A DNA stretch of 64,000 nt from Escherichia phage teqhad (NC_054933.1), one strand, 5' to 3'. Counted from the stretch's first letter, positions 6,989 through 64,000 are shown. The notes: generated by a model from the sequence alone, not told the origin. Numbers and translations: made by a program.

Positions 6989-7002
6989 TCTTTGACGATT
7001 TA

Positions 7003-7033
7003 AGGGACCTTCGGGTCCCTTTAGTTGTTTTTA
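7003..7033 (+). terminator. rho-independent terminator after gene 23
   Basis: GGGACC-UUCG-GGUCCC followed by T-run. Confidence 0.75.
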
Positions 7034-7046
7034 TGGTATAAATAAA

Positions 7047-7054
7047 TCATATAA
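7047..7054 (+). promoter_or_regulatory. late promoter TATAAATA (gene 24)
   Basis: Exact TATAAATA downstream of gene 23 terminator. Confidence 0.7.
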
Positions 7055-7071
7055 ACCAAAAGGAAAGCGCA

Positions 7072-11810: not shown

Positions 11811-11839
11811 TAGATATATTTATTACATGGTATTTAGAC

Positions 11840-13351
11840 ATGACTGACATTAAAGTACATTTTTATGATTTTAGTCACGTGAGAATTGATTGTGAAGAAA
11901 GTACATTTCATGAACTCCGTGATTTCTTTAGCTTTGAAGCTGATGGGTATCGTTTTAATCCGAAATACAAATATGGCCACTGGGATGGACGAATCCGTCT
12001 TTTAGATTATAATCGTCTTCTTCCATTCGGCTTAGTCGGGCAAATTAAAAAGTTCTGTGATAACTTTGGCTATAAAGCCTGGATTGACCCACAAATTAAC
12101 GAAAAAGAAGAATTATCAAGAAAAGATTTTGATGAATGGCTTTCTAAATTAGAAATCTATTCAGGAAATAAAAGAATTGAACCACACTGGTATCAAAAAG
12201 ATGCAGTGTTCGAAGGATTAGTTAATCGTCGTAGAATTCTTAATCTTCCAACATCCGCTGGTAAATCGTTAATTCAAGCTTTGCTTGCGCGATATTATTT
12301 GGAAAATTATGAAGGTAAAATTCTTATCATTGTTCCAACAACTGCTCTGACAACTCAGATGGCTGATGACTTTGTTGATTATCGTTTATTCAGTCATGCA
12401 ATGATAAAGAAAATTGGTGGAGGAGCATCAAAAGATGATAAATATAAAAATGATGCACCAGTCGTTGTTGGTACATGGCAAACTGTAGTAAAACAACCGA
12501 AAGAATGGTTCTCACAGTTTGGAATGATGATGAATGATGAATGCCATCTTGCTACAGGAAAAAGTATTTCATCTATCATATCAGGTTTAAATAACTGCAT
12601 GTTCAAATTCGGTTTGTCTGGTTCATTACGTGACGGCAAAGCTAATATCATGCAGTATGTTGGAATGTTCGGTGAAATATTTAAGCCAGTAACGACTTCT
12701 AAATTAATGGAAGATGGACAAGTAACTGAGCTAAAAATTAATAGTATTTTTCTTCGCTATCCAGATGAGTTCACTACTAAATTAAAGGGAAAAACTTACC
12801 AAGAAGAAATAAAAATTATTACTGGGCTCAGTAAAAGAAATAAATGGATCGCTAAATTAGCTATTAAGCTTGCGCAAAAAGATGAAAACGCTTTTGTCAT
12901 GTTTAAACATGTATCGCATGGTAAAGCTATTTTCGATTTAATTAAAAATGAATACGATAAAGTTTATTACGTATCAGGGGAAGTTGATACCGAAACCCGC
13001 AATATAATGAAAACCTTAGCTGAAAATGGTAAAGGAATAATTATAGTAGCTAGTTATGGTGTATTTTCTACTGGTATTTCAGTTAAAAATCTGCATCACG
13101 TTGTTTTAGCGCACGGTGTTAAATCAAAAATCATTGTATTACAAACAATCGGTCGTGTATTACGTAAGCATGGTTCTAAAACAATCGCAACCGTCTGGGA
13201 CCTCATAGATGATTGTGGTGTTAAGCCAAAATCTGCTAATACGAAAAAGAAATATGTTCATTTGAACTATCTTTTAAAACACGGCATTGATCGTATTCAG
13301 CGCTACGCAGATGAAAAATTTAATTACGTAATGAAAACAGTTAATTTATAA
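11840..13351 (+). CDS. uvsW: UvsW RNA-DNA and DNA-DNA helicase
   Basis: 503 aa; helicase motifs (PTSAGKS Walker A, DECH box). Confidence 0.93.
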   Translation: MTDIKVHFYDFSHVRIDCEESTFHELRDFFSFEADGYRFNPKYKYGHWDGRIRLLDYNRLLPFGLVGQIKKFCDNFGYKAWIDPQINEKEELSRKDFDEWLSKLEIYSGNKRIEPHWYQKDAVFEGLVNRRRILNLPTSAGKSLIQALLARYYLENYEGKILIIVPTTALTTQMADDFVDYRLFSHAMIKKIGGGASKDDKYKNDAPVVVGTWQTVVKQPKEWFSQFGMMMNDECHLATGKSISSIISGLNNCMFKFGLSGSLRDGKANIMQYVGMFGEIFKPVTTSKLMEDGQVTELKINSIFLRYPDEFTTKLKGKTYQEEIKIITGLSKRNKWIAKLAIKLAQKDENAFVMFKHVSHGKAIFDLIKNEYDKVYYVSGEVDTETRNIMKTLAENGKGIIIVASYGVFSTGISVKNLHHVVLAHGVKSKIIVLQTIGRVLRKHGSKTIATVWDLIDDCGVKPKSANTKKKYVHLNYLLKHGIDRIQRYADEKFNYVMKTVNL

Positions 13352-22203: not shown

Positions 22204-22257
22204 TCCTCATGTTATGCCAGTAAGACTACTATAACACAACACGAGGGACTTGTAAAC
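22204..22257 (-). repeat. 54-bp early promoter/leader repeat, copy A
   Basis: About 92 percent identical to 38018-38071 from promoter through RBS. Confidence 0.7.
22228..22257 (-). promoter_or_regulatory. early promoter GTTTAC-N18-TATAGT
   Basis: Minus strand GTTTACA, 18 nt, TATAGT; drives alt.-3-position ORF. Confidence 0.55.
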
Positions 22258-24314
22258 TACATTTTGAACTTTTTAGACATTCCGTTGATGTTAACCAAAG
22301 AAGCCAAGATTTGAGAAACTTCGTTTTCCTCTTCTTTTGATTCTTCTACAAGGAATTGATTAAATCCAGCCATTGGACGAACTTCACCAGTTTCCATTAG
22401 ATGGTCGCCATCATATACCGATTCCTCTAATTGTTCAGAAGGAGGAACGATTGTACCTTCTATTAGATACTTGTTATAAGCAGTTTCTTTCATAAAGTAC
22501 GTGCTCACTTTATTAATCTTCAGTAAAATTCCACGCGGTAGAATAACTTCAGCTTCTGATGGAAATCCTGATAAATGACCTGGAACGATAACTTTGATTC
22601 GCTCAGCTCCTTTAATTACCATACCCACGCTAGTTTCAGCATCTTCATTAGCATATGTAGAATGACTACCCATATGCATCAAATCTTCTGCATCAACGGA
22701 ACCTTCTCCTTCGCCAGAAAATACTGCGCCGGAATCATCTAGAGCCATATAGTTTTTACCGTGCTCACCGAAAATATTTGGTTTAAGCGATGTGGATACG
22801 AAGTTCTTGAAATAGAACATTTTGTTTTCAATATTATGACGCAAAGTTTTAAAGGTAACTTCTTGTCCACGGTAAAGTGTAGTTCCTGGAGGAAGAACTG
22901 AACCTTTAGCGAATGCAGAATCAAGCGTCTCGATGTGTTTAATAGCTCGTTCCATATATTCTTCACGGGTAGAATCTGGTTTACCCAAAAGGAACGAGTT
23001 CATTTCAACATATGAATCTGCACAATAATCTTCAATTACGTCAGATTCAGCCTGAGTTAATCCTTTTGGAGTTACTTCAGTACTTGCATATTCATATGCC
23101 TGAGCGGCAGATTCATTAATCAATTTATAAATGCCATTCATGACAAATTGAATAATAGCTGTCTTTTCATCTGGCGTAGCTTTAGAACCTTTAGCTAAAT
23201 CATTGACAATTTTCTTAATAACATCAAAACTATTAGAAATATTAATATCAGCAAGATCGCTTAAAATTTTATCAGTTTTATAATCAAAGAATTCTTTATT
23301 CTTTAAATATTCTTGAGAACCTTGATATGTTATATCGCTCTGCAGCTTGATAGATGGATCGCGTAAACGTGCATGGGCCAATGCAATATGATTTCGGAAG
23401 TTTTCTAGTTCATAATCGTTAGATTTAAAACGAGAAGCACTTCTCATACCACCGATAGCTCCTTTGCTAAAGTTTGAACCAATCTGAATAACGCCAGAGT
23501 TCATCGGACCTTCTGCTTTATATACCGGAACTTTAGATTCAAACTCTTGATATTTCTTAGCAGCGAAGCTATCACCCTGAAGTGAAGCATCAACAGTAGA
23601 ATATTGAGCTTGTGCTGCTAATCGACGACTAATTTTAGTTTTCTGAATAACAGCTTGATCCGTGCGCTTATCATTTTCTAAAGCAATAGAAGCAGCAACA
23701 GCGACAGCTTTAGGAACAGCATTACCTGTTTTAACGTCTACATAAACATCACCAACCTTTGATTCAACTTTTGTGAATAACTCAGTTGAAATAGGAGGTA
23801 CACCTGGAATGTCTTCTAAATTGGCATTTTTACGGTAAACCATAATATATGCATATTTCTTATCATAGTCCCAGATTTCCTTTAAAAGAACATATCGACC
23901 TGCTCCTTTAGTACGTACTAAACGGTCAGCAATAACTTGCATTTGACGAGCTGCGCCATTTGTTTTACTTTTTAGTACGCGGAATAGGCATGCGTCGATT
24001 TTATACTGTTTCATTGTTTGAAGAGCAGTATCAAAAACAGCATTAATGACGCCAATTGGATTTCCACCCAAGTTTCTAAGCTTGACTAACGATAATTTCT
24101 CGTTGACACCTATCATTACGATATGCATCATTTTGTCGCCTGGCTTAACGTTTTTATTTGTATCACCGCCAGAGGTGTATGTACAAAATCTAAATCCAGG
24201 AAGAACGCTTTCTTCACCGGCTTGAATAGCAAAAATTTGTGGTATTTTATGCTTAGGATTTAAGTTAACAACCGGCGCCGAAGCGCCGTCAAATAATTCT
24301 GTAATAAGTTCCAT
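22257..24314 (-). CDS. Alt-like ADP-ribosyltransferase paralog (alt.-2 position)
   Basis: 685 aa; N-terminus MELITELFD..NLNPK.KIPQIF shared with Alt; C-terminal R (LYRGQ), STS (FVSTSL) and E (SEAEVILPRG) ART-type motifs. Confidence 0.8.
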   Translation of the reverse strand: MELITELFDGASAPVVNLNPKHKIPQIFAIQAGEESVLPGFRFCTYTSGGDTNKNVKPGDKMMHIVMIGVNEKLSLVKLRNLGGNPIGVINAVFDTALQTMKQYKIDACLFRVLKSKTNGAARQMQVIADRLVRTKGAGRYVLLKEIWDYDKKYAYIMVYRKNANLEDIPGVPPISTELFTKVESKVGDVYVDVKTGNAVPKAVAVAASIALENDKRTDQAVIQKTKISRRLAAQAQYSTVDASLQGDSFAAKKYQEFESKVPVYKAEGPMNSGVIQIGSNFSKGAIGGMRSASRFKSNDYELENFRNHIALAHARLRDPSIKLQSDITYQGSQEYLKNKEFFDYKTDKILSDLADINISNSFDVIKKIVNDLAKGSKATPDEKTAIIQFVMNGIYKLINESAAQAYEYASTEVTPKGLTQAESDVIEDYCADSYVEMNSFLLGKPDSTREEYMERAIKHIETLDSAFAKGSVLPPGTTLYRGQEVTFKTLRHNIENKMFYFKNFVSTSLKPNIFGEHGKNYMALDDSGAVFSGEGEGSVDAEDLMHMGSHSTYANEDAETSVGMVIKGAERIKVIVPGHLSGFPSEAEVILPRGILLKINKVSTYFMKETAYNKYLIEGTIVPPSEQLEESVYDGDHLMETGEVRPMAGFNQFLVEESKEEENEVSQILASLVNINGMSKKFKM

Positions 24315-24317
24315 GAT

Positions 24318-26411
24318 TTATCCTTGAACGAACTTGTAAGGCATGTTTGTAATATCTATGCAAGACGCAATAATTCCAAGAGATGATTCTACTTTCTGTT
24401 TAACGTTTGATGAAACAAATGATGCAAAGTCAACTCTGTCTTCTATTTCAATATCACCTGTCATTGCAACCAATTCACCAGTTTCCATTAAATGGTCTCC
24501 ATCATAGATTACCGATTCGGTGAGCTCTTCCGTGGTCATAACTTCAGCTTGAATGAGTTTTGTATTATTAGATGTTGTTCCGTCATTATTAGAAGCATCA
24601 GTTATTTTATTAACTTTGACCATCAATCCACGCGGTAGAATAACTTCAGCTTCTGTTGCTATTCCGAGACTTCCTGGATATACAACATTAACTTTATGAG
24701 CTCCATCAATTGCCCATCCTATTTGAACTTTAACGTATTCAGGATTTTCTTTATACGCTCTTATTTCGTTTGGATTAATAGTTATTCCTTCTTCATTTTT
24801 ATCAACTGTTAATTCATTGCGAGCTTCTGGTTCTAAAAGACCAATACCAGCATGTGTAATTCCAAAACGTCCAAAAATGATAGGAGTTAAAGAAGTAGAT
24901 ACAAAATTTCTGAAGTAGAACACTTTATTTTTAACTAGTGCTTCGTATATAGGAGCAGTCATACTTTGAGCACGATAAACTGTAATGCCTTCTGGTATAC
25001 GGTCACCATTTTCAAAAGCTGAATCTAAGTTATTTATAGCAGATTCAATTTCTTTTTCACTCATTACATCATATCGTTCTGGATTGTAACGACCTAAAAG
25101 AAGATTATTAATGTCAGTATATCCTGAACCACAATATTCTCTAATACCTCTCTTTTGTGATGGAGTATATTTAGAACCATCACGAGCGATTGTAATATCA
25201 ATCATAGGACCAGCTCCTACGCCAGAGAAACTGTATATCATTCGTTTGAGGAATTTAGTTTTTGCTGCGTTCCAGGAATTTTTAGTTATTTCTTCCCAGA
25301 CTTCATCTGGTTGTCCTTTACGATTTTTATTATGATTAGCAAGCCATTTATCTTTATAATCTTCAAAGAATTGATTTACAGCTGCTGCGTATTTCTCTAA
25401 ACATTTTATTGAAGTAGTTGGTTCATTTTTAATTGCATTAAAAATTACTTCTTTAATTTTTTCTGAAACTTCACCGACTTGACTCATTGGAAAGAATTTA
25501 TAATCATAGTGAAGTTCATCTGCCGTTCCTTCAGCAATAATTTTTGCTGCCTTTGTTTTAGAAGCTAATGAATTAATTCCAATTTTCATTTCTTCTGCTT
25601 CGGGAATTAAAGGTGCAGTAGCTGGTTTATTAAAATTAGCTGCTGTAGATTCATACTTCTGGAATAATTCACTTTCAAATCTAGAAGATTCCAATGACTG
25701 GCTTTGTGCAATTGCTCTACGGGAAATTTTAACTTTAACGATTACAGCTTGGTCAGAACGTTTATCATTTTCTTGTGCAATAGATGCTGCAATTGCCTCA
25801 TTTTTGGTTACTTGGGCTCCAGTATCTTTATTGATATAAACATCACCGACTTTCGATTCAACTTTAGTAAAGAGCTCGGTACTAATTTCCGGAACTCCTG
25901 GAATGTCTTCTAGTGATACATTTTTACGATGTATAAGAATATATGCATACTTTTTATCGTAATCCCAGAGTTCCTTAAGAAGGACGTATCTGCCACCTGA
26001 ACGACTACGGATAAGTCTATCAGCAATAACTTGAATTTGTCGAGCTTGACCAGCGGTTTTAGACTTAAGAATACGAAGCATACAAGCATCAATTTTATAT
26101 TGACGCATTGTTTGCATTGCAACAGTAAAAACTGAATTGATATAATTAATTGGGCTTGGACCAAGACCTTTTAATTTAGCAATTGAACCTTTAGCAGTTA
26201 ATGTAAAAGGAACGATATGCATCATTTTATCGCCCATTTTTAAATCGCGATTAGTATCACCTCCAGATGTATACGTGCATAAACGAAAGCCTGGTTGTTC
26301 AATTGCATCATCAACATGAACTGAAAAAATTTGTGGTATTTTCTTCTTTGGATTTAAGTTTGTAATCGGAAGAGTAGTATCTTCGTCAAATAATTCTGTA
26401 ATGAGTTCCAT
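24318..26411 (-). CDS. alt: Alt, head-packaged ADP-ribosyltransferase
   Basis: about 697 aa from second ATG (GAGGA upstream); R (VYRAQ), STS, E (TEAEVILPRG) motifs; late promoter on minus strand at 26435-26442. Confidence 0.88.
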   Translation of the reverse strand: MELITELFDEDTTLPITNLNPKKKIPQIFSVHVDDAIEQPGFRLCTYTSGGDTNRDLKMGDKMMHIVPFTLTAKGSIAKLKGLGPSPINYINSVFTVAMQTMRQYKIDACMLRILKSKTAGQARQIQVIADRLIRSRSGGRYVLLKELWDYDKKYAYILIHRKNVSLEDIPGVPEISTELFTKVESKVGDVYINKDTGAQVTKNEAIAASIAQENDKRSDQAVIVKVKISRRAIAQSQSLESSRFESELFQKYESTAANFNKPATAPLIPEAEEMKIGINSLASKTKAAKIIAEGTADELHYDYKFFPMSQVGEVSEKIKEVIFNAIKNEPTTSIKCLEKYAAAVNQFFEDYKDKWLANHNKNRKGQPDEVWEEITKNSWNAAKTKFLKRMIYSFSGVGAGPMIDITIARDGSKYTPSQKRGIREYCGSGYTDINNLLLGRYNPERYDVMSEKEIESAINNLDSAFENGDRIPEGITVYRAQSMTAPIYEALVKNKVFYFRNFVSTSLTPIIFGRFGITHAGIGLLEPEARNELTVDKNEEGITINPNEIRAYKENPEYVKVQIGWAIDGAHKVNVVYPGSLGIATEAEVILPRGLMVKVNKITDASNNDGTTSNNTKLIQAEVMTTEELTESVIYDGDHLMETGELVAMTGDIEIEDRVDFASFVSSNVKQKVESSLGIIASCIDITNMPYKFVQG

Positions 26412-26434
26412 CATATCCTCTCTAGTGTTTATTC

Positions 26435-30402: not shown

Positions 30403-30768
30403 TTAAATATCAAATTCGTTAAGAACTACATCAAAGATTGCTTCAAGATGCTCAGGTTTAGCTCTGTTACTCAGAATATGACGAATCCAAGTTTTAACCA
30501 AAAGCTTGCGATTAGCACCATTCCAGCAAGGATGAGTCCCTAAATCGCGTTGACGAAAATCATCATCCAGAGCGATTTTAAAGTTGGAACCTTCCATTGT
30601 GATTGAAACCGTGATGCCATTTTCAAATCGCATATAAACGTAATTAGGAGTCATATACTGTTCAATTTCGCATACTGATCCATTTTGATGTTTCCAAAGG
30701 CAAATAGTATCAATAGAACCTGCAATACCATTAGAAACATATTTACGTTCAAAGTTGATGTAGTTCAT
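30403..30768 (-). CDS. hypothetical protein
   Basis: 121 aa ORF. Confidence 0.55.
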   Translation of the reverse strand: MNYINFERKYVSNGIAGSIDTICLWKHQNGSVCEIEQYMTPNYVYMRFENGITVSITMEGSNFKIALDDDFRQRDLGTHPCWNGANRKLLVKTWIRHILSNRAKPEHLEAIFDVVLNEFDI

Positions 30769-30836
30769 TTTTGTTCTCCGAGATGTTTAATTGCGGTACA
30801 GGTATATAATATCATATCCTGTACCAAAGTAAACAA

Positions 30837-31169
30837 TTATTTTACTACTTTCCAATGCTGCATGTCAAGTTTACCAACTTTTTTCATCTTCTCAATTAAG
30901 CGTTCGGCACGTTGGCGAGCTGTAACATAATGCCATTCGCCTAATTCATTTTGTTCAATTTTTCCAACGATTACTGTATTCAATTCATAAATCCAACCAG
31001 TAAAGAAATTATGAACTTGAATTGTAAAGGTGAAATCTGTTCCCATACCTTCTGTTGTTTCTACTTCAATAATATCACCTTCAACTGCCATTAAGAACCA
31101 CATAGTTTCATCATATTTACCATTGAAGCATTTAGTTTTAACTGCAGCGTTCAGATTAATCGTTTTCAT
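30837..31169 (-). CDS. hypothetical protein
   Basis: 110 aa ORF with GTTTACA-N17-TAGTAT early promoter upstream. Confidence 0.6.
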   Translation of the reverse strand: MKTINLNAAVKTKCFNGKYDETMWFLMAVEGDIIEVETTEGMGTDFTFTIQVHNFFTGWIYELNTVIVGKIEQNELGEWHYVTARQRAERLIEKMKKVGKLDMQHWKVVK

Positions 31170-31196
31170 TTTATTCTCCTTTGTTTGTGTAAGATA

Positions 31197-31226
31197 ATAC
31201 TATCACAAAGGAACCATACTGTAAAC
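31197..31226 (-). promoter_or_regulatory. early promoter GTTTACA-N17-TAGTAT
   Basis: Follows terminator 31257-31274 on minus strand. Confidence 0.55.
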
Positions 31227-31256
31227 AACTTTGTGCAATCTTTGGAAAATAAAAAA

Positions 31257-31274
31257 GGACTCCCGAAGGAGTCC
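31257..31274 (-). terminator. rho-independent terminator downstream of 30.9-position ORF
   Basis: Minus strand GGACUCC-UUCG-GGAGUCC followed by U6. Confidence 0.7.
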
Positions 31275-31279
31275 TCAAC

Positions 31280-33951: not shown

Positions 33952-34184
33952 AGTACGCCATACACCCTTTGTGCTTCAACTAATCCATCAAAATCCAATT
34001 TAAGATGTGTTATTTGATCACCATCACCTGGATTCACAATTACTAATACTGAACGAGGAGTTTCGGTAATAACACGAACCGATGTTTCAGGAAATCGTTC
34101 AGAAACCTTATTTACCAATTCCTGTGCAAATAGCTTAACTTTTTCTTGGAATTCTTTAACAGTAATCGGTTTTTCACTTAGCAT
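33948..34184 (-). CDS. hypothetical protein (cd.x cluster)
   Basis: 78 aa. Confidence 0.55.
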   Translation of the reverse strand: MLSEKPITVKEFQEKVKLFAQELVNKVSERFPETSVRVITETPRSVLVIVNPGDGDQITHLKLDFDGLVEAQRVYGVL

Positions 34185-34720
34185 GTTGATCCCAGCTCCT
34201 TACTTTCAACGTTTTTAACTAATTTGACAGAAACTAATTCAGCATCTTGAGTAATCATTACCGGGCCTTCTTCATACTCTTCAAGATATTCTAGAGCTTT
34301 CTTTTTAGCTTCTTCCTTCGTATCAGTTTGAGCATAGATATAAAACATACAACCAGTAATACCTACTACTTTCCATTTAATTTCTTTATCAGTTTTAATT
34401 TCAAATTTACTGACAGAATCATCTTTTTGAACTTCTTCGAAAAAATAATATTCTGACATATAAGTAATTGAAAATAATGGGCTATCTTTATAGCATTCAC
34501 CCATTACATCAACAGCTTTATACCAGTAATCGTCAATTTCACGTTTAATGCTAATAACATTTTTCGCGGGATCAATTTTTACTTTAAATGAATTTTCCCC
34601 AATAAACTGAGCAATTCGTTTATTAGCCCCGCAAGTTTCATTAAAAATATCTTTATATCCAGCTTTAAAGCGATAAACCTTATCTTCTTCAAACCATTCG
34701 CTCATTTTCAATTTCCTCAT
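34178..34720 (-). CDS. hypothetical protein (cd.x cluster)
   Basis: 180 aa. Confidence 0.6.
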   Translation of the reverse strand: MRKLKMSEWFEEDKVYRFKAGYKDIFNETCGANKRIAQFIGENSFKVKIDPAKNVISIKREIDDYWYKAVDVMGECYKDSPLFSITYMSEYYFFEEVQKDDSVSKFEIKTDKEIKWKVVGITGCMFYIYAQTDTKEEAKKKALEYLEEYEEGPVMITQDAELVSVKLVKNVESKELGSTC

Positions 34721-35436: not shown

Positions 35437-36639
<1,203 letters not shown>

Positions 36640-38017: not shown

Positions 38018-38071
38018 TCCTCATGTTATGTCAGTAAGACTACTGTAACACAACATGAGGGACTTGTAAAC
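38018..38071 (-). repeat. 54-bp early promoter/leader repeat, copy B
   Basis: About 92 percent identical to 22204-22257. Confidence 0.7.
38042..38071 (-). promoter_or_regulatory. early promoter for alc
   Basis: Minus strand GTTTACA, 18 nt, TACAGT; near-identical copy of 22204-22257. Confidence 0.55.
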
Positions 38072-39689: not shown

Positions 39690-40868
39690 TTAAAAATATT
39701 TTTTAAAACTCATCATAACTTTATCATCAACATCATTATCAATCTGTGCAACAAGATAAGATGACAGTTCTACTTCTTGTGGCGCGGATTGAACATTATC
39801 AGAATTAAGATATTCACGAATCCAAGGATATGGATGTTTAACCGGAGCATCGGTAATTGGGCATGGAAGACCACACTGTTTCATACGAGATACAGTTAAG
39901 TAATCAATAAAGCTCCACATGCTATTTGTATTTAATCCAGGAACATCGCCATCTTTAAATAAATGAACTGCCCAATCTTTTTCTTGGCGGTTAACTTCCA
40001 TGAAAATATCAACTGCTTCTTGTTCACACTCTTGAGCAATTTTAACCCATTCATCGCCATCAGTACCAGATTGAAGTTGACGAATAATATATTGTGTACC
40101 TTTAAGATGAAGCTGCTCATCACGTGCAATGAACTTCATAATCTTTGCATTGCCTTCCATAATTTCCATGTTCTTATGGAAGTTAAAGGTACATGCGAAA
40201 GATACATAAAAACGAATAGCTTCCAATGCGTTGATTACATGCAAACAGAGGTAAAGAGATTTCATTAGCTCACGCTTCCAATATGTCTCATGCTCAATAG
40301 CATCTTCAATAACATCTTCGTCTGCATTAATTTCTTTTTGGTATTCGATATCAGCTTTAGCGTTTTCCCAATAACGAGTTTTAGTCAGAACATCATCATA
40401 ATAACGTCCAATGGATTCAGCACGTTTCATAATAGCTTCATCTAATACAATCTCATCAAATACCTTCGATGGATCAGTATAAAGATTTCGCATGATATGT
40501 GTATATGAACGAGAGTGAATAGTTTCACTAAAAGTCCACGTAGCAACCCATGTATCAAGGCTTGGGTCTGAAATTAATGACATAAGTACAGCAGACGGCG
40601 CACGACCCTGAATGCTATCCAAAAGTGATTGATACTTCAGATTATTAGTAAAAATATTTTGCTGATACTGAGGAAGCTTATTAAACTGTGCAGCATCCAT
40701 CATTAAGTTTACTTCTTCAGGACGCCAGAAAAATGATAATTGCTTTTCGGTTAAATCTTCAAAAACTTTATGGCGTTGAATATCATAACGCGCAATACCA
40801 AGACCTGAACCAAAAAACATAGGTTCTTTTAAAACATCAACTGGATTTGTATTAAAAACTGTGCTCAT
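39690..40868 (-). CDS. nrdB: ribonucleotide reductase small subunit, uninterrupted
   Basis: 392 aa continuous ORF, no intron. Confidence 0.92.
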   Translation of the reverse strand: MSTVFNTNPVDVLKEPMFFGSGLGIARYDIQRHKVFEDLTEKQLSFFWRPEEVNLMMDAAQFNKLPQYQQNIFTNNLKYQSLLDSIQGRAPSAVLMSLISDPSLDTWVATWTFSETIHSRSYTHIMRNLYTDPSKVFDEIVLDEAIMKRAESIGRYYDDVLTKTRYWENAKADIEYQKEINADEDVIEDAIEHETYWKRELMKSLYLCLHVINALEAIRFYVSFACTFNFHKNMEIMEGNAKIMKFIARDEQLHLKGTQYIIRQLQSGTDGDEWVKIAQECEQEAVDIFMEVNRQEKDWAVHLFKDGDVPGLNTNSMWSFIDYLTVSRMKQCGLPCPITDAPVKHPYPWIREYLNSDNVQSAPQEVELSSYLVAQIDNDVDDKVMMSFKKYF

Positions 40869-40919
40869 AAATTTTCCGCTTAGTTAATAGTTGGTGACTC
40901 GTCCGTGAGTCAAATTATA

Positions 40920-43184
40920 TCATAATTTACAGGATGAACAATCTTCAGCTTTTGGAGTTTCTATTTCATAATCATCAGTACCAGAACCATCACGGGTATT
41001 ATGATAATAGAAATTTTTTCCGCCAAAATACCAAAAATACAAAAGGTCATCAATCATTATTGACATTGGAACCTTTCCTTTTGGAAAAATCTGTGGGTCA
41101 TAATATGTATTCGCTGAAGCTGATTGACATACCCATTTCAGCATAATAGCTACCTGCGTAAGATAAGGTTTATTACCTTTCTTAGCTAATTTCCATGTAT
41201 AATCATAGAGGTCTATGTTATGCTCAATATTGGGCACGACTTGATTAAAGGAGCCCTCTTTTGATTCTTTAACAGAGACTGGTCCACGTGGAGGCTCGAT
41301 ACCGTTTGTACTGTTAGAAACTTGGGAAGATGACTCACATGGCATAAGTGCTGATAATGTGCTATTACGGATGCCAAAGAGCTTAAGGTCTTCCCGCAGC
41401 GACGACCAGTCACAAACGTATTTTGGAGCTGCGATTTGGTCAATCTTTTTATTGTACCAGTCGATAGGTAATTCGCCTCGAGACCAACGAGTGTCTGAAT
41501 AATATTCACAAGGTCCTTTTTCTTTGGCGAGCTTAATGGATGCTTTAATGAGTCCATACTGTAATCTCTCAAATAGTTCATGTGTTAAATCGTTAGCATC
41601 TTCATAAGAAGCAAAGTTACTTGCCAGCCAAGCTGCATAGTTAGTAACACCTACACCAAGGTTTCGACGCTTTTTAGCTTTTTCTGCTTCAGGAACTGGA
41701 TATCCTTGGTAATCCAAAAGATTATCAAGAGCACGAACTTGAACTTCTGCTAATTCATTAATTTTATCTTGGTCTTGCCAATCGAAGTTATCCAGCACAA
41801 ATGCAGATAACGTGCACAATCCAATTTCAGCATCAGGGCTATTCACATCATTTGTTGGAATAGCAATTTCACAGCACAAGTTACTCTGACGAATAGGTGC
41901 CTTTTCACGAATAAACGGAGTATAGTTATTCGTATTATCAATGAACTGCACATAAATCCTTGCTGTTCCTGAGCGTTCAGTCATGAGCAATTCAAATAGT
42001 TCACGGGCTTTAATGCGCTTTTTACGAATATTAGGGTCTTTTTCTGCTGCTTCGTATAATTCACGGAAACGGTCTTGGTCTTTAAAATAAGAATAATAAA
42101 GCTCTCCACCCATTTCATGTGGACTGAACAAAGTAATGTAATCGTTCTTTCCAAAACGTTCCATCATTAGATCATTCAGTTGAACACCATAATCCATATG
42201 ACGAATGCGGTTTTCTTCTACACCTTTGTTATTTTTCAAAACGAGAAGATTTTCAACTTCCAAATGCCAAATAGGATAATAAGCAGTAGCAGCGCCGCCA
42301 CGAATTCCACCCTGTGAGCATGATTTAACAGCAGTCTGAAAATGTTTCCAAAAAGGAATAACACCGGTATGGCGTACTTCACCCATGCCAATCTTAGAAC
42401 CTTCAGCACGAATCATACCAACGTTAATACCAATTCCAGCGCGTTTAGAGATATATTCAACAATTGAAGCGGAAGCCTTATTGATAGACTTTAATGAATC
42501 ACCTGCCTCAATAACAACACATGAACTAAACTGTCGAGTCGGAGTACGGCAACCAGCCATAATAGGAGTTGGCAATGAAATCTGTCGAGTAGATACTGCT
42601 TCATAAAAACGGATAACGTGTTTTAATCTATCAACAGGTTCATCTTGATGCAATGCCATTCCAATAGTCATAAATGCAAACTGTGGAGTTTCATAAATTT
42701 GACCAGTGGTTTTATCTTTAACTAGATATTTTTCTTTTAATTGCATCGCCCCGGAATAAGTAAATTCCATATCCCGCTCGTGCTTAATTTTTGATTCTAA
42801 AAATGTAATTTCTTCTGCTGAATATTTTGACAATAATTCAGGGTCGTATTTACCTTCATTTACACAGTAAGAAATATGGTCAATAAATGAACGTGGTTCA
42901 TACTGCCCATAAACATGCTTACGAAGAGCGAACATTAGACAACGTGCAGCTACATATTGATAATCAGGCTCTTCAACCGAAATAGAATTCGCAGCGGCCT
43001 TAATGACAATAGTCTGAATATCATCAGTTGTCATTCCATCACGGAGATAAGATTTAATATTTTCATATAATTCATAAGGATCTACCGATGTTCCTTCAGC
43101 TGCCCAAGATAAAACTTTAATAATTTTTTGTGGGTCAAAGCTCTGAGAAACACCACTACTTTTGATAACATTAATTAATTGCAT
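40920..43184 (-). CDS. nrdA: ribonucleotide reductase large subunit
   Basis: 754 aa. Confidence 0.93.
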   Translation of the reverse strand: MQLINVIKSSGVSQSFDPQKIIKVLSWAAEGTSVDPYELYENIKSYLRDGMTTDDIQTIVIKAAANSISVEEPDYQYVAARCLMFALRKHVYGQYEPRSFIDHISYCVNEGKYDPELLSKYSAEEITFLESKIKHERDMEFTYSGAMQLKEKYLVKDKTTGQIYETPQFAFMTIGMALHQDEPVDRLKHVIRFYEAVSTRQISLPTPIMAGCRTPTRQFSSCVVIEAGDSLKSINKASASIVEYISKRAGIGINVGMIRAEGSKIGMGEVRHTGVIPFWKHFQTAVKSCSQGGIRGGAATAYYPIWHLEVENLLVLKNNKGVEENRIRHMDYGVQLNDLMMERFGKNDYITLFSPHEMGGELYYSYFKDQDRFRELYEAAEKDPNIRKKRIKARELFELLMTERSGTARIYVQFIDNTNNYTPFIREKAPIRQSNLCCEIAIPTNDVNSPDAEIGLCTLSAFVLDNFDWQDQDKINELAEVQVRALDNLLDYQGYPVPEAEKAKKRRNLGVGVTNYAAWLASNFASYEDANDLTHELFERLQYGLIKASIKLAKEKGPCEYYSDTRWSRGELPIDWYNKKIDQIAAPKYVCDWSSLREDLKLFGIRNSTLSALMPCESSSQVSNSTNGIEPPRGPVSVKESKEGSFNQVVPNIEHNIDLYDYTWKLAKKGNKPYLTQVAIMLKWVCQSASANTYYDPQIFPKGKVPMSIMIDDLLYFWYFGGKNFYYHNTRDGSGTDDYEIETPKAEDCSSCKL

Positions 43185-43741: not shown

Positions 43742-44602
43742 TTATACCGCCATTTTTCCTTTAATTGGCAGATGAGATACATAGTTGTTAAGAACAAAAT
43801 TATGAGGCTTTGCAAATTGACTCAACCAAAATACCTGCGATTCTGTGTCCCATTCATCAAATTCATCTGGAAATTTTAATTGTAATTCGCATAAATCCAT
43901 AGGTTCACGACGCAAAATTTCTTTACATTGTTCTACGTGATTCATATAGATATGAGTATTACCACCAGAAAATATCAAATCTCCCGGAATAAGATTACAC
44001 ATCTTAGCTACAATATGAACTAACGTAGCATATGATGCAATATTAAATGGAAGACCGAGGAAAACATCTACCGAACGTTGATACCACTGCAAATCTAAAT
44101 AGCCATTACGCACATTAAACTGATAGAACATATGACAAGGAGGTAATGCCATATATTTAAGTTCAGCTGGATTCCACGCAGAAACGATTTGACGTCGATC
44201 AGTTGGTAATTTTTTAATACGATCAATAGTTTCAACTAATTGATCCACACCACCGAAATCACGCCATTGTTTACCATATATAGGACCAAGTTCACCACTA
44301 TGATATCCTAGGTCTTTAGCCTGGTTTTCATAGTTATCGTCCCAAACTGTTTTGCCTTGGATTAACGAATCGTGTTGAATTAATCGTAAATCATTAACAT
44401 TTGTGCTTCCTGATAAAAACCATATTAGCTCAGCAATGCATGCATTCCAGGCGAGCTTCTTAGTTGTTACTGCAGGAAAACCTTTGGTTAAATCCCAACG
44501 CAATTTAGTACCGAACAGAGCAATTGTTCCTGTGCCCGTTCGGTCATCGGTTTCATAGCCATTTTCAAAAATGTCTTTAATTAAATCTTGGTATTGTTTC
44601 AT
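43742..44602 (-). CDS. td: thymidylate synthase, uninterrupted
   Basis: 286 aa continuous ORF, no intron. Confidence 0.93.
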   Translation of the reverse strand: MKQYQDLIKDIFENGYETDDRTGTGTIALFGTKLRWDLTKGFPAVTTKKLAWNACIAELIWFLSGSTNVNDLRLIQHDSLIQGKTVWDDNYENQAKDLGYHSGELGPIYGKQWRDFGGVDQLVETIDRIKKLPTDRRQIVSAWNPAELKYMALPPCHMFYQFNVRNGYLDLQWYQRSVDVFLGLPFNIASYATLVHIVAKMCNLIPGDLIFSGGNTHIYMNHVEQCKEILRREPMDLCELQLKFPDEFDEWDTESQVFWLSQFAKPHNFVLNNYVSHLPIKGKMAV

Positions 44603-44647
44603 TTAGTACCTTATATAAATTATAATACATTTTATGAAGCTAAATAA

Positions 44648-45007
44648 TCAATACGGTTTAGCATCAAATTTTCTCTCAATTTCAGGTGTGAAATATAATT
44701 CTTTACCGCGTTTGGAAAAGCGACCAATAATATGATAATTATTCTCATCAAACGTAATATTACCAATATCCATAGCTTTCAACCAAATATCGATATTTCT
44801 ATCCAGCTTTATGTCAAAATTCCAATACGGAGAACTATTACCGAAAATACTGCAAGCGGATTCAGTGAAACAGCTACTATAAATCTTGTCTTTAGGAACT
44901 ACTAATTGATAGACACCTTTAATAAACTGAGGACCCTGCCATTTAGGTTGTTTCACGTCTTTTTCTAATAGAATAGGGTAATAATTAAAATTCATATTTT
45001 CCGCCAC
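44648..45007 (-). CDS. hypothetical protein inserted between frd and td
   Basis: 119 aa from GTG at 45007, or 115 aa from ATG at 44995; no recognisable motif. Confidence 0.55.
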   Translation of the reverse strand: MAENMNFNYYPILLEKDVKQPKWQGPQFIKGVYQLVVPKDKIYSSCFTESACSIFGNSSPYWNFDIKLDRNIDIWLKAMDIGNITFDENNYHIIGRFSKRGKELYFTPEIERKFDAKPY

Positions 45008-45015
45008 GCGTTATT

Positions 45016-45842
<827 letters not shown>

Positions 45843-45852
45843 ATTATTTTCC

Positions 45853-46095
45853 TTAAACAGACTTTTTCACAATTTTCCAATCAGCTTTAAACTGCTCGAC
45901 GTCAGAATGGTAAATCCAAAATCCTGCGCTTTCTCCGTCTTCATAAAGAGGGCATCCATCACATTCATCTTCCCATCCCATGTCACGTAAAAGATGTTCA
46001 GCTTTTTCAACAAGTTCAGAATCTTTACCGATGATATTAAAATACCATTTACCTCTAACTTCCGAATCTTTGATGCTCTGACGTTGTAATCTCAT
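45853..46095 (-). CDS. hypothetical protein (frd.x cluster)
   Basis: 80 aa; early promoter at 46124-46154. Confidence 0.55.
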   Translation of the reverse strand: MRLQRQSIKDSEVRGKWYFNIIGKDSELVEKAEHLLRDMGWEDECDGCPLYEDGESAGFWIYHSDVEQFKADWKIVKKSV

Positions 46096-46123
46096 TTTAT
46101 TCTCCTCAGTAGTTGATAGGGTA

Positions 46124-46154
46124 ATAGTATCACACTACTACCCTTTCTGTAAAC
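46124..46154 (-). promoter_or_regulatory. early promoter
   Basis: Minus strand GTTTACA ... TGATACTAT. Confidence 0.5.
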
Positions 46155-46578: not shown

Positions 46579-46806
46579 TTATTGTTCAATCAGTCCCATG
46601 TAAAATTCTGCGTCTTCAGAATCCATGCCATCGCAATATTCATTAGCCATAAAGCGGGTGAGGTCTTCAAGAGGACCTTCAATAACGATTTGAATACTCC
46701 AAAACTTAGAATCTTGCACGCTTGTAATACTAAGTTCAGGATAACGATTACGAATAATTTCTTCAATATATTCAAAATCAACGATGTCAATATCAACTTT
46801 AGCCAT
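46579..46806 (-). CDS. hypothetical protein (frd.x cluster)
   Basis: 75 aa from ATG with AGAGGA upstream; ORF-track start at 46827 lacks an RBS. Confidence 0.55.
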
Positions 46807-46845
46807 ATTGTTTTCCTCTTTAATCATCAGCAGTATTGCCGATAG

Positions 46846-46879
46846 TTGTATAGTACCACAGTCCTTGTGGTATGTAAAC
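46846..46879 (-). promoter_or_regulatory. early promoter within PeSL-like cassette
   Basis: Minus strand GGTTTACA ... TGGTACTAT, preceded by terminator 46909-46927. Confidence 0.55.
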
Positions 46880-46908
46880 CGTTTTGTGAAAAAATTTTTA
46901 AAATAAAA

Positions 46909-46927
46909 AAGGGGACCCTAGAGGTCC
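46909..46927 (-). terminator. terminator downstream of gene 32
   Basis: GGGGACC-CTAGA-GGTCCCC with A/T runs. Confidence 0.7.
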
Positions 46928-46951
46928 CCAATTAATTAGTAATATAATCTA

Positions 46952-47860
46952 TTAAAGGTCATTCAAAAGGTCATCCAGGTCCGTGTCATCAGCACTAGAT
47001 GAACTGCCAGAGCTTGAGCTCATAAAATCATCTTCAGTTTTTGTATTGAAGTCATCAACATTGAATGCATCCAAATCATCAGCAACTTTATCAGCTTTCT
47101 TAGCAGCAGTTGCAGCGGCACCGCCCATCACAGCAGTTCCCATAACTTGACCAAATTTAGTGCTCAGTTCTTCAAACGATTTGAATTTATCTTTAGAAGT
47201 CATTTCAGAAAGGTCAACCATTTGTTCGAACAGTTCTTTCTGGAAAGATTCATCGTCAATGTTTGGAATCGCAGATTGATTCAGGAATTTAGATTCGTCG
47301 TAGTTACTAAATCCAGAAACCTGTTTAACTTTCAGTACAAAGTTAGCACCTTCCCACGGACAAGTTACATCAACCGGAGTTTCACCCATTTCAACATCAA
47401 CCGCAATCATCGCGTTGATTTTATCCCAGATTTTCTTACCGAAACGATATTTAAATACTTTACCTTCGTTTTCTGGAGCAGCTGGGTCTTTTACAACAAG
47501 AATGTTAGCCCAGTAAGAAGTTTTACGTTTAACAAGACTGTACTCTTTGTTGTCAGTGTTGTACAGATCATTTTTACTGATGTATTGACATACTGGGCAA
47601 GAATCGTAATCACCGTGGGTAGATGAACAGTTTTCAATATACCATTTACCATTTTTCTTGAAACCGTGATTTACAAGAATTGCGAATGGTGCTTGTTCAT
47701 CATTTTTAGACGGAAGAAAACGAATTACTGCTTGACCGTTACCCGCATTGTCGAGTTTCAGTTTCCACTCGCCTTTATCTTCAGAAGAAAAACCACCTTT
47801 ATTTCCAGCCAGTTTAGCCATTTGTGCAGCGAGTTCAGCAGTAGATTTACGTTTAAACAT
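46952..47860 (-). CDS. 32: single-stranded DNA-binding protein gp32
   Basis: 302 aa; acidic Ser-rich C-terminus; AU-rich translational operator upstream. Confidence 0.95.
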
Positions 47861-47900: not shown

Positions 47901-47943
47901 ACGATGTATGACCTCATAGCTGGTCAGTGAGATAATTATAATC

Positions 47944-47951
47944 TATTTATA
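47944..47951 (-). promoter_or_regulatory. late promoter TATAAATA for gene 32
   Basis: Reverse-complement TATAAATA upstream of gene 32 leader. Confidence 0.5.
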
Positions 47952-47959
47952 ATAAGCAA

Positions 47960-58900: not shown

Positions 58901-59231
58901 TAACATATTCTATGACGGATATAATAGTGTAGGTGCAAACGCCAACGCTAAATTCACTGGAACCGTGAACGGTGCTACTGCAGGGTCGAATATAGCCAAA
59001 ACTTCTTCAGACGGTGCTCATACTCATACTTGGTCTGGTACTACAAGCACTACAGGTAACCATGCTCACACAGTAGGTATTGGTGCTCATACCCATACTG
59101 TAGGTATCGGTGCTCATACCCACACGGTAGCAATTGGCTCGCATGGTCATACTATCACTGTAAATAGTACAGGTAATACAGAAAACACGGTTAAAAACAT
59201 TGCTTTTAACTATATCGTTCGTTTAGCATAA
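55956..59231 (+). CDS. 37: long tail fibre distal subunit gp37 (receptor-binding tip with His-x-His repeats)
   Basis: 1091 aa; C-terminal GxHxH repeats and ...NYIVRLA end. Confidence 0.92.
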
Positions 59232-62579: not shown

Positions 62580-63215
62580 TCACAGTTCAGATGCTACAGT
62601 GATTACTGCTTCAATGTTTTCTGCTGAGCGTTTAATGTCAAGATACACATTACCGTTTTTAGCGATTTTACATGACATTCCGATATCAGTAAATTTCTGA
62701 ATATGATGTTCCATCATTTTGTATCCAAAAATTCGCATATTTCCATTGTTGTTAATTTCAAAATTGCGAATTCCATGTGTACGTTTTTCTAAAATGGCAA
62801 GATAATTACTACGATAAGTTTCAACCTTTTTAAGAACAAATCCATTTTCATCTAGCAGTTTTAACATGAGGTCTTTATCTTCTTCCATATCAGAAGTAAT
62901 CTCACGAGCTTTACGAGTTGCTCGTTTTTTCAGAAGTTCTGGAGCATTTTCCTGTGCATATAAAGTTGCTGCATTTGAAATAATATCTTGTGCTTCACCC
63001 GTGATGATTAATCCATCACCTGATTTCTCTACCAGGCCTTTTTTAATTAATACCCCAATATTACTATTAACTACTGCGTTACCTAAATCTGGATGCACCT
63101 CACGAACTTCTGCAGCTGTAATGAAATCTTTCTTAGCAATGGTAATTAAAATCGCAGCGGTTTTTTCATTCAGAACATCGTTAGAAGCTTTGATGATGTA
63201 AGTTACTTTAGACAT
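62580..63215 (-). CDS. motA: middle-transcription activator MotA
   Basis: 211 aa, MSKVTYIIKASNDVLNEKTAAILITIAKKDF... Confidence 0.93.
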   Translation of the reverse strand: MSKVTYIIKASNDVLNEKTAAILITIAKKDFITAAEVREVHPDLGNAVVNSNIGVLIKKGLVEKSGDGLIITGEAQDIISNAATLYAQENAPELLKKRATRKAREITSDMEEDKDLMLKLLDENGFVLKKVETYRSNYLAILEKRTHGIRNFEINNNGNMRIFGYKMMEHHIQKFTDIGMSCKIAKNGNVYLDIKRSAENIEAVITVASEL

Positions 63216-63255
63216 TTTCTAATCTCCGTAATTCTGTATCAGTAGTTGATAGTTG

Positions 63256-63286
63256 TATAGTACCACAGTATGCTTTGGTTGTAAAC
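63256..63286 (-). promoter_or_regulatory. early promoter for motA within PeSL-like cassette
   Basis: Minus strand GGTTTACA ... TGGTACTAT, preceded by terminator 63318-63337. Confidence 0.55.
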
Positions 63287-63317
63287 CGTTTTGTGAAAAA
63301 ATTTTTGAAATAAAAAA

Positions 63318-63337
63318 GGGAGAGCCTCGGCTCTCCC
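63318..63337 (-). terminator. terminator upstream of motA early promoter
   Basis: GGGAGAGC-CUCG-GCUCUCCC with flanking A/T runs. Confidence 0.65.
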
Positions 63338-63342
63338 TAAAA

Positions 63343-63492
63343 TTACTGCATGACTGTGATAACTGTCATGATAACACGTTGAATGCCGAACGCAAGAAGA
63401 CCTCCTGCTACGGCTGGAACAACACCTAAACCCGCCAGTAAAATGCTACCGGATACTAATGCAGCGCTTGTAATACCTATGAATGGACTCAT
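63343..63492 (-). CDS. small hydrophobic membrane protein, 49 aa, not in ORF track
   Basis: Hand translation MSPFIGITSAALVSGSILLAGLGVVPAVAGGLLAFGIQRVIMTVITVMQ; ATG overlaps gene 52 stop as ATGA. Confidence 0.5.
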   Translation of the reverse strand: MSPFIGITSAALVSGSILLAGLGVVPAVAGGLLAFGIQRVIMTVITVMQ

Positions 63493-64000
63493 TTGATTTC
63501 CTCTAAATCTTTGGTGTATTCTGTAACTACATCAGTAGTTTTCCAATATTCGTTTTCTTCTTTTTTAGCTTTAGCTTCTTCAGCAAGTTTCTTTGCTTCA
63601 TCAGAAGTCATATGAAAAATATTCATACCAACTAGTTTATCAACATAAGAAGAATACATCTCAATTTTAGAAAGTTCTTCGGTCAGTTCTTTACGAGTTT
63701 TACCCTGTACAACAATTTCACCTGAAATTACTTTCTTAATGAAATGCGCCTTGGCAAAGGCTAAACGAAAAGCTGACTCAGTTTCTTTAATTTTGTTATC
63801 AATTCGTTTTTGGACATAAGTTTTACGAACTTCGACGAAGTCTTTGATTAAATCAACTACGTTATCGTAAACTTGCAGTTTTCCTTTCTCATTAATAACC
63901 GTAATATTCTGAGAACGACGCTCAATCAACCCAAAGTCTTTCATAATTTTTGCATGGCGTTCTTCTTCGTTATCGCTCAAAGAATATTCTTTACGGAATT
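63489..64000 (-). CDS. 52: DNA topoisomerase II medium subunit gp52, C-terminal part (5' end beyond window)
   Basis: Reading frame ends at TGA 63489-63491 and is expected to continue past the window edge; follows motA as in T4. Confidence 0.8.
   Translation of the reverse strand, partial: FRKEYSLSDNEEERHAKIMKDFGLIERRSQNITVINEKGKLQVYDNVVDLIKDFVEVRKTYVQKRIDNKIKETESAFRLAFAKAHFIKKVISGEIVVQGKTRKELTEELSKIEMYSSYVDKLVGMNIFHMTSDEAKKLAEEAKAKKEENEYWKTTDVVTEYTKDLEEIK

Follow-up and report, generated by a model that had tools for sequence, protein, structure and literature searches.

Terminator and early-promoter cassettes downstream of gene 32 and upstream of motA in a Tequatrovirus: a tight promoter subfamily with rearrangement junctions in related phages

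Abstract

Two intergenic cassettes of Escherichia phage teqhad, found downstream of gene 32 and upstream of motA in a 64-kb window (the whole stretch of 64,000 nucleotides analysed here), are very probably composite transcription punctuation signals of a T4-like genome, the conserved patches of which act, as a by-product, as junctions for sequence exchange. Their anatomy, their non-random similarity, the existence of several allelic promoter cores matching paralogous promoters, and the location of breakpoints inside cassettes were observed directly; that the promoters and terminators are active in this phage, and how recombination proceeds, is predicted from the sequence. The cassettes illustrate how neighbouring transcription units may be insulated while immediate-early genes are switched on, among them motA, which activates the middle programme, and would provide a concrete sequence basis for the gain and loss of accessory genes without disruption of essential operons. 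The T4 literature and the papers on PeSL elements have already established both points, and our finding confirms more than it extends them. Its added value is modest, and consists of the quantification of junctions in all four cassettes (~480 genomes) and of paralogous core swapping at frd.3.

Background

PeSL elements combine a stem-loop, an AT-rich tract and an early promoter with a Shine-Dalgarno (SD) sequence and ATG, are repeated in hyperplastic regions, and have been linked to indels (PMC2839356, PMC4122927). The promoter consensus reported for the PeSLs of PST and T4 is TTTACW-N17-TAYWAT (PMC4122927). Early promoters of T4 are composed of UP, -35, TGn and -10 elements with additional conserved regions (Hinton 2010, PMC2988021), and RegB sites follow the consensus GGAGRAYARAA (PMC3014915). 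Arbiol et al. described PeSL mini-circles in RB49 and phi1, and speculated on a protein binding GGGG..CCCC stems (PMC2839356).

Results and discussion

Genomic context

Alignment to annotated T4 showed the window to be collinear with T4 ~99.5-164.4 kb and assigned it to Tequatrovirus; its best match in the GenBank phage collection reached 97.5% over 24 kb. Population counts were taken from this collection, an exact-pattern scan of IMG/VR having returned only 4 loci. Rfam families gave no match at the gathering threshold anywhere in the window, and a literature search found no genome-wide map of transcription start sites and terminators for T4; the promoter and terminator activity of these sites is presumably covered by the older T4 literature. 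The two focal cassettes are orthologues of the gene 32|frd.3 and motA.1|motA intergenic cassettes, both of which are present in T4 (their promoters correspond to the T4 sites at 146874 and 163672, respectively). The PeSL feature is thus already known, these being orthologues of T4's own cassettes and the concept having been published for T4 and PST. The features discussed below are collected in Table 1.

Table 1. Coordinates of genes, cassette parts, homology breaks and related promoter sites (window positions unless marked T4)
Feature	Position	Strand	Details
Gene 32	46952-47860	minus	ORF; collinear alignment to annotated T4
frd.3	46579-46806	minus	ORF; ATG 46806-46804; equivalent of T4 frd.3
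motA.1	63343-63492	minus	ORF; alignment to T4
motA	62580-63215	minus	ORF; ATG at 63215; alignment to T4
Predicted intrinsic terminator downstream of gene 32	46911..46929	minus	GGGGACCTCTAGGGTCCCC; 8 pairs, 6 GC; -15.2 kcal/mol; U-tract 46900-46910
Terminator U-tract merging into UP-element-like tract	46879..46910	minus	T6AT4 + A5T6 + CACAAAACGG; from sequence, UP reading from E. coli consensus and Hinton 2010 (PMC2988021)
Early promoter core upstream of frd.3	46850..46878	minus	-35 TTTACA 46878-46873; -10 TACTAT 46855-46850; 17-nt spacer TACCACAAGGACTGTGG with TGn
Initial transcribed region, frd.3-specific leader, SD and ATG	46804..46849	minus	ACAACTATC; SD AAAGAGG; from sequence
Predicted intrinsic terminator downstream of motA.1	63317..63338	minus	AGGGAGAGCCGAGGCTCTCCCT, then U-tract; 9 pairs, 6 GC; -20.1 kcal/mol, z=-4.7
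motA early promoter	63257..63316	minus	UP-like tract, CACAAAACGG, -35 TTTACA 63285-63280, spacer ACCAAAGCATACTGTGG, -10 TACTAT 63262-63257
motA leader	63213..63256	minus	ACAACTATCAACTACTGATACAGAATTACGGAGATTAGAAAATG, SD CGGAG; ~63228-63246 is the insertion site of an extra ORF and promoter in ~29% of Tequatroviruses
frd.1 early promoter, no terminator	46093..46153	minus	frd.2 TAG stop, TTTACA, 18 nt, TACTAT, TACCCTATCAACTACTGAGGAGAATAAAATG; SD GGAGAATAAAATG
30.9|30.8 intergenic terminator and early promoter	31167..31276	minus	Hairpin 31276-31255; -35 31225-31220; -10 31202-31197; SD GGAGAATAAAATG; gene 30.8 start 31169
Gene 30.7 early promoter	30764..30833	minus	TTTACT, 16 nt, TATTAT; SD GGAGAACAAAAATG; tandem partner of the 31225 cassette
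frd.3-site spacer allele A			TACCACAAGGACTGTGG; window, SholemSchwarzbard; ~50 records
frd.3-site spacer allele B			AGCATAAAGCTTTATGG; T4; ~78 records
frd.3-site spacer allele C			TCCCTATTCTTCCATGG and variants; GiZh, G8, PST, T2; ~266 records + 116 variants
Extended-motif site, denB|ndd.6	T4 167085		T4 whole-genome scan
Extended-motif site, motA.1|motA	T4 163672		T4 whole-genome scan
Extended-motif site, 32|frd.3	T4 146874		T4 whole-genome scan
Extended-motif site, upstream of e.8	T4 70695		T4 whole-genome scan
Extended-motif site, nrdC.11|nrdC.10	T4 55383		T4 whole-genome scan
Extended-motif site, 43|imm.1	T4 27079		T4 whole-genome scan
Cassette indel, alt.-3 promoter	22276		20 nt upstream of the promoter; window/T4 homology break
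Cassette indel, 30.8/30.7 tandem cassettes	30779-31165
Cassette indel, ORF213	34183-34712		16 nt downstream of cd.2 promoter start (34764 promoter)
Cassette indel, frd.1 promoter	46093-46109
Homing-element absences	7000-7060, 11826-11846, 40192-40195, 40868-40924, 44053-44054, 47923-47959		Relative to T4

Anatomy of the focal cassettes

The original prediction was that 46841-46927 and 63248-63337 share a minus-strand cassette downstream of gene 32 and upstream of motA. A repeat search of the window recovered this pair, with 46841-46913 and 63248-63320 aligning ungapped over 73 nt at an identity of 88%; a BLAST comparison inside the window that allowed gaps extended the match to 92% over 75 columns (E=1e-17). 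Read on the minus strand, both copies display the same order of parts, i.e. the stop of the upstream gene, a GC-rich hairpin, a U-tract, an UP-like A/T tract, CACAAAACGG and the -35 hexamer TTTACA, followed by 17 nt ending in TGG, the -10 hexamer TACTAT, ACAACTATC, a leader, an SD and an ATG. Between hairpin and CACAAAACGG stands T6AT4 in the frd.3 copy vs T6AT3C in the motA copy, then A5T6 in both; in the motA copy, the motA.1 stop is followed by GGGAGAGCCGAGGCTCTCCC before the shared upstream tract. The block comprising U-tract, UP and position -36 is identical at 31 of 32 nt (46879-46910 vs 63286-63317), including the non-contact positions C-43, C-45 and CGG at -38..-36. The -35 and -10 hexamers match at six of six positions each and the 9 nt just past the -10 at nine of nine, the leaders diverging after +9, whereas only nine positions of the 17-nt spacer agree and the hairpin stems are unrelated except for GGG..CCC. 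Uninterrupted identity is restricted to two runs of 38 and 21 nt.

This distribution of identity bears on one account of the pair, in which a segmental duplication recently carried one cassette to the second site and has no further significance; the 88% identity over 73 nt would favour this account, which we consider extremely improbable. The similarity ends at the promoter, and since stems and spacer differ, the pair is not a recent duplication of the whole cassette; identity is patchy (31/32, 9/17 and 21/21) rather than uniform. Moreover, at least six members of the promoter subfamily occur in T4, and both sites hold the same cassettes in T4, T2, PST and ~480 other Tequatroviruses, the arrangement being therefore old.

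Relatives also show how the individual parts are conserved. In the T4 orthologues, A+T makes up 83% of the 30 nt that precede the -35, and compared with the window this tract is identical at frd.3 and has one A/T difference at motA. The spacer of the motA promoter is identical in T4, T2, PST, PhiZZ23 and G9062, as is its -10 except in T2 (TATTAT). A 'terminator' annotation is present at the orthologous gene 32 site in GiZh, and a terminator is likewise annotated at the orthologous motA.1 site in G9062.

The other two predicted copies

A third promoter copy had been placed at 46096-46154, and a terminator and early promoter of the same layout at 31197-31274. The former is the frd.1 promoter and follows the same consensus, but it lacks a hairpin and is not a strict repeat, sharing with the motA copy only the 14-nt word CTATCAACTACTG(A) (E=0.02-0.03). 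The latter proved to be a complete unit, equivalent to the T4 cassette at 130309 between 30.9 and 30.8, in which the promoter reads TTTACA-N17-TAGTAT (31225-31197) and TAGTAT departs from TAYWAT at one position; only words of 12-15 nt are common to it and the focal copies (E 0.006-0.5). Both loci therefore resemble the focal copies in layout and consensus only, and are not strict repeats.

The three terminator hairpins (-15.2, -20.1 and -17.7 kcal/mol), with stems of 8-9 bp and a U-tract after each, are the top three minus-strand terminator-like sites within 24-64 kb. They have the form expected of Rho-independent terminators, a GC-rich hairpin and U-run 3' of a stop codon on the coding strand, and the gap from stop to hairpin is 22 nt for gene 32 and 4 nt for motA.1. 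For promoters, a generic sigma-70 scan returned 72 and 82 sites vs 73 and 77 expected, i.e. no discrimination, while CACAAA-N4-TTTACA-N17-TANTAT occurred three times exactly and once with one mismatch, none being expected (100 shuffles). Only the extended T4 motif discriminates promoters in this AT-rich DNA.

A tight early-promoter subfamily

If the similarity of the focal pair were limited to the promoter consensus, the pair should be no more alike than other T4 early promoters. We compared it with the 496 pairs formed by 32 early-promoter-like sites of T4 with an SD and ATG downstream. Over -55..+22 the focal promoters are 73% identical, compared with a mean of 42% (sd 7.6%) among the T4 pairs, two of which reach 73%, placing the focal pair in the top 0.4%. 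In the upstream 32 nt identity rises to 97%, where T4 promoter pairs average 40%, and the mean pairwise identity of spacers among T4 promoters is 38%. The focal promoters are thus members of a tight early-promoter subfamily, beyond the generic consensus. The subfamily has at least six close members in T4, with looser relatives elsewhere in that genome (Table 1), and queries spanning each cassette hit 4-7 places per genome in most of the near-full-length Tequatrovirus records sampled.

A second near-identical promoter pair was noted in the window, 22204-22257 and 38018-38071 (94% over 54 nt), which correspond to the promoters of alt.-3 and alc and read GTTTACAAGTCCCTC.TGTTGTGTTA.AGT... A 9-bp inverted repeat, CCTCATGTT...AACATGAGG, spans their -10 and resembles the RB49-type PeSL, in which the stem overlaps the promoter.

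Relationship to PeSL elements and other modular systems

The focal cassettes conform, at the sequence level, to the PeSL type of PST and T4. TTTACA-N17-TACTAT is found at 46878-46850 and 63285-63257, and an A/T tract, an upstream stem-loop, an SD and an ATG accompany both, the frd.1 copy being a promoter-only or 'half' element. The copies are repeated and head the frd.x, 30.x and motA-arn runs of small ORFs, motA itself being conserved and of known function. Indel junctions coincide with such elements at the motA leader, at 30.8 in T2, at the frd.1 promoter and at ORF213. The proposal that PeSL-like cassettes mediate modular gene shuffling thus agrees with both sequence and junctions, and the cassettes may have a causal role in it. 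That they flank small-ORF islands held in part: they mark the upstream edge of small-ORF runs, and that edge only. Furthermore, 16.4 kb of sequence with essential genes separates the focal copies, which cannot therefore themselves bound an exchangeable module.

Compared with the PeSLs described by Arbiol et al. (2010) and, for PST/T4 and nt-1/KVP40, by Comeau et al. (2014), the cassettes are likewise multi-copy, upstream of small ORFs, and have indels at or next to them. However, PeSLs of RB49 type have near-perfect TTGACA/TATAAT promoters and a stem often between or over the -35 and -10, whereas here the terminator is separate and upstream; and the present stems (GGGGACC.., GGGAGAGCC.. and GAGGACTCC..) are not of the AGNA-loop-TCNT form called frequent in PST. 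From the T4 early promoters (Pe) there is no difference in kind, with a GTTTAC -35, a 17-bp spacer, TGn, a TAnTAT -10, an A/T-rich upstream tract and extra conserved positions, although the frd.3 spacer allele differs here from that of T4. As in lambdoid morons (Hendrix et al. 2000) and the 'linkers' of Botstein, small ORFs travel with a promoter or terminator and conserved boundaries are exchange points; morons, in contrast, are not thought to move via regulatory sequences, while here junctions fall inside conserved regulatory sequence. Integron gene cassettes similarly are ORF-sized modules at a recurring boundary element that secures expression, but here there is no integrase and no defined crossover site, and each module has its own promoter.

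Rearrangement junctions in related phages

Had breakpoints in related genomes failed to coincide with the cassettes, the shuffling proposal would have lost its ground. Targeted searches comparing gene content between cassettes across relatives (~480 public genomes) instead located rearrangement junctions in each of the four cassettes in some relative. In the motA leader, phages of the G9062 type carry an inserted 75-codon ORF and a second early promoter, the insert being flanked by a ~35-nt direct repeat of -10 and leader (TACTATA.A.CTATCAAATAAATGAACTGAAAC). The 75-aa ORF is present at >=95% identity in 138 Tequatrovirus records (~29%), and homologues lie at other loci in a Gelderlandvirus and a Jiaodavirus, those of the Jiaodavirus being bracketed by early promoters. 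In Citrobacter phage PhiZZ23, a 127-nt tandem duplication comprising the 3' end of motA.1 and the terminator has its junction in the A/T tract of the motA cassette; this phage is otherwise 100% identical to the window over 62850-63750, and the duplication results in two tandem terminators before the motA promoter. In Mosigvirus ATK47 and Dhakavirus IME08, terminator-P-ORF-P(-ORF) arrays with direct promoter repeats of 40-65 nt occupy the interval between 52 and motA.

Gene 30.8 is absent from T2, with the junction within the SDs GGAGAATAAAATG and GGAGAACAAAAATG of the two tandem cassettes (30.8 and 30.7), and both SDs fit the RegB site consensus. At the frd.1 promoter, an insertion directly 5' of the -35 gives GiZh a 259-nt ORF, the C-terminus of which adjoins the frd.3 promoter in JS10, and T4, PST and SholemSchwarzbard have a 22-codon ORF between the leader TATCAA and the SD. 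The latter is hydrophobic (MFAPYIMAAVMLVCLYLLIKAC) and unannotated, lies at ~146019-146084 in T4, and is lacking from the window (46093-46109), T2 and GiZh.

Among ~490 Tequatroviruses, no change of gene content was found exactly at the 32|frd.3 cassette, where variation within the genus amounts to spacer-allele swaps, terminator loop flips and one ~100-nt deletion, in Shigella phage Sfk20. In this deletion (~window 46870-46970) the gene 32 stop, terminator, UP tract and -35 are lost and the gene's 3' end is joined to the spacer of the frd.3 promoter; it is either a real mutant or an assembly error. Across three genera, a terminator and promoter keep their position after gene 32 while the downstream genes differ, the promoter preceding frd.3 in Tequatrovirus, frd.2a in JS10 and frd.2 in SQ17.

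Comparison of the window with T4, PST and T2 yielded six homing-endonuclease or intron indels and, over 19-64 kb, ten others. The former are all clean cases of presence or absence, the window being without segD, segE, the nrdB intron (I-TevIII), nrdB.1/mobE, the td intron (I-TevI) and segG of T4. Four of the ten remaining indels lie at early-promoter cassettes (Table 1; binomial p ~0.04 under a null in which ~10 of ~65 early gene junctions carry such promoters), and the other six at translationally coupled junctions with no promoter. This unbiased tally is the only usable one, a count of 8/14 being biased by the targeted cassette searches. The enrichment is modest, and could partly reflect the tolerance of promoter-bearing gaps to insertion.

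Four small ORFs of the window that T4 does not have (34183-34712, 36341-36637, 44605-45011 and 45597-45842) correspond to ORF213, ORF218, ORF232 and ORF234 of Yersinia phage PST; three of these four sit at translationally coupled junctions without a promoter.

The positions of the junctions are relevant to the idea of a dedicated mobile-element system, in which hairpin and promoter would form a site for an integron-attC-like recombinase moving ORF mini-circles. The P-ORF-P arrays between 52 and motA would suit such a system, but we regard it as highly improbable: junctions are scattered over the UP tract, the region upstream of the -35, the leader and the SD, with no single crossover point, and it is because of this scatter among sub-elements that site-specific recombination was rejected. 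In addition, no part of the cassette is less conserved than the stems, and the junction-bearing frd.1 and 30.7 promoters are without a hairpin. To our knowledge, T4 has no integrase-like gene. Even in RB49 and phi1, where the PeSL mini-circles were described, Arbiol et al. identified no such gene (PMC2839356).

Spacer alleles at the frd.3 site

At the orthologous frd.3 site, the terminator stem, the leader and frd.3 itself are conserved among Tequatroviruses, while the 17-nt spacer occurs as at least three unrelated alleles (Table 1), counted with 80-nt queries that differ in the core alone (for C, also in one upstream base) among the ~483 records that have the site. Each allele has a counterpart elsewhere. 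Allele B at frd.3 of T4 is identical at 17 of 17 positions to the promoter of nrdC.11|nrdC.10 (146874 vs 55383). Allele A matches the T4 denB|ndd.6 promoter at 16 of 17 and the denB-downstream promoter of SholemSchwarzbard, a phage that itself carries allele A at frd.3, at all 17; allele C resembles the e.8 and imm.1 promoters. Spacers being otherwise poorly conserved (mean 38%), these paralogue-matching alleles call for sequence transfer rather than convergence, and are evidence that the frd.3 promoter core has probably been swapped among paralogous alleles.

The gene 32 terminator loop also varies, reading GGGGACC-TCTAG-GGTCCCC in the window, PST and T2 and GGGGACC-CTAGA-GGTCCCC in T4, GiZh, SholemSchwarzbard and G8, where the loop is the exact reverse complement of that of the window. 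The orientation was read directly in these seven sequences only; ~321 records match the window version at >=95%, and ~161 fall in the 90-95% band, which includes the T4 version. The motA terminator (63317-63338) likewise flips, GCC-GA-GGC vs GCC-TC-GGC. At least five of the six combinations of loop orientation and spacer allele occur.

The spacer alleles also bear on pure functional convergence, according to which selection for early-promoter strength alone shaped the cassettes, without any role of recombination, and the indels nearby are coincidental. Much of the shared A5T6..AAAA tract fits the distal and proximal subsites of the E. coli UP-element consensus, as would be expected if function maintained it. 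Likeness is seen in the promoter alone (-67..+9), with different stems and a mostly different spacer, and the unbiased indel enrichment reaches only p ~0.04. T4 early promoters have, besides, an unusually extended consensus (PMC2988021), and this together with the UP-consensus fit means that function accounts for part of the conservation of the focal pair. As a complete explanation, however, convergence is unlikely, given that spacers, though weakly constrained, match at 17/17 positions in promoters that are not orthologous and belong to unrelated alleles in promoters that are, that the non-contact positions listed above are identical too, and that a direct repeat of promoter and leader flanks the G9062 insertion.

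We prefer the reading of the cassettes as punctuation signals that double as exchange junctions. A rho-independent terminator would end the upstream unit (gene 32, or 52/motA.1), with its U-tract running into the UP-like tract of a presumably very strong sigma-70 early promoter (UP, -35 GTTTACA, 17 bp, TGn, -10 TACTAT). This promoter would fire right after infection to express frd.3-frd.2, or motA and the genes downstream, from a start predicted within the conserved ACAACT-A-TCAAC region, and the transcript would bear a GGAG-type SD of the RegB-cleaved kind. The copies would be alike as members of a tight early-promoter subfamily under strong functional constraint, and dispersed copies may also exchange sequence via homologous recombination or gene conversion. 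As in the published PeSL model, the UP tract, the -10 and leader, and the SD could then be preferred junctions for insertion, deletion or replacement of modules made up of an ORF and a promoter. Recombination between the two focal copies themselves would delete 16.4 kb of essential genes. For efficient homologous recombination in T4, ~50 bp of homology is usually quoted, and the runs of the focal pair (38 and 21 nt) fall below this.

Taking spacers and loops together, we lean towards the view that the early-promoter cassettes of Tequatroviruses constitute a concertedly evolving, multigene-like family, in which the ~100-nt unit 3' of gene 32 is a recombination micro-hotspot, its three or more unrelated spacer alleles each having its source in a paralogous promoter at a distance of up to 90 kb and, with the two loop orientations, assorting almost freely in ~480 phages. 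If this is true, conversion tracts of a few tens of nt between dispersed promoters would be frequent in nature, could serve to gauge how little homology T4-type recombination needs and how long its tracts are, and could account for the way in which ORF modules reach 'safe' landing sites. The spacer alleles and loop flips are small additions, which could grow into a population-scale study of promoter gene conversion.

Other features of the window

Two full-length tandem alt paralogues of 685 and 698 aa occupy 22257-26414; T2 also has two copies, and T4 only the remnants alt.-1 and alt.-2. The region most divergent from T4 (76-79%) extends over 56.1-59.1 kb. Three tandem 27-nt units at 59061-59141 represent, by position, the His-x-His repeat of the tip of the distal tail fibre (gp37).
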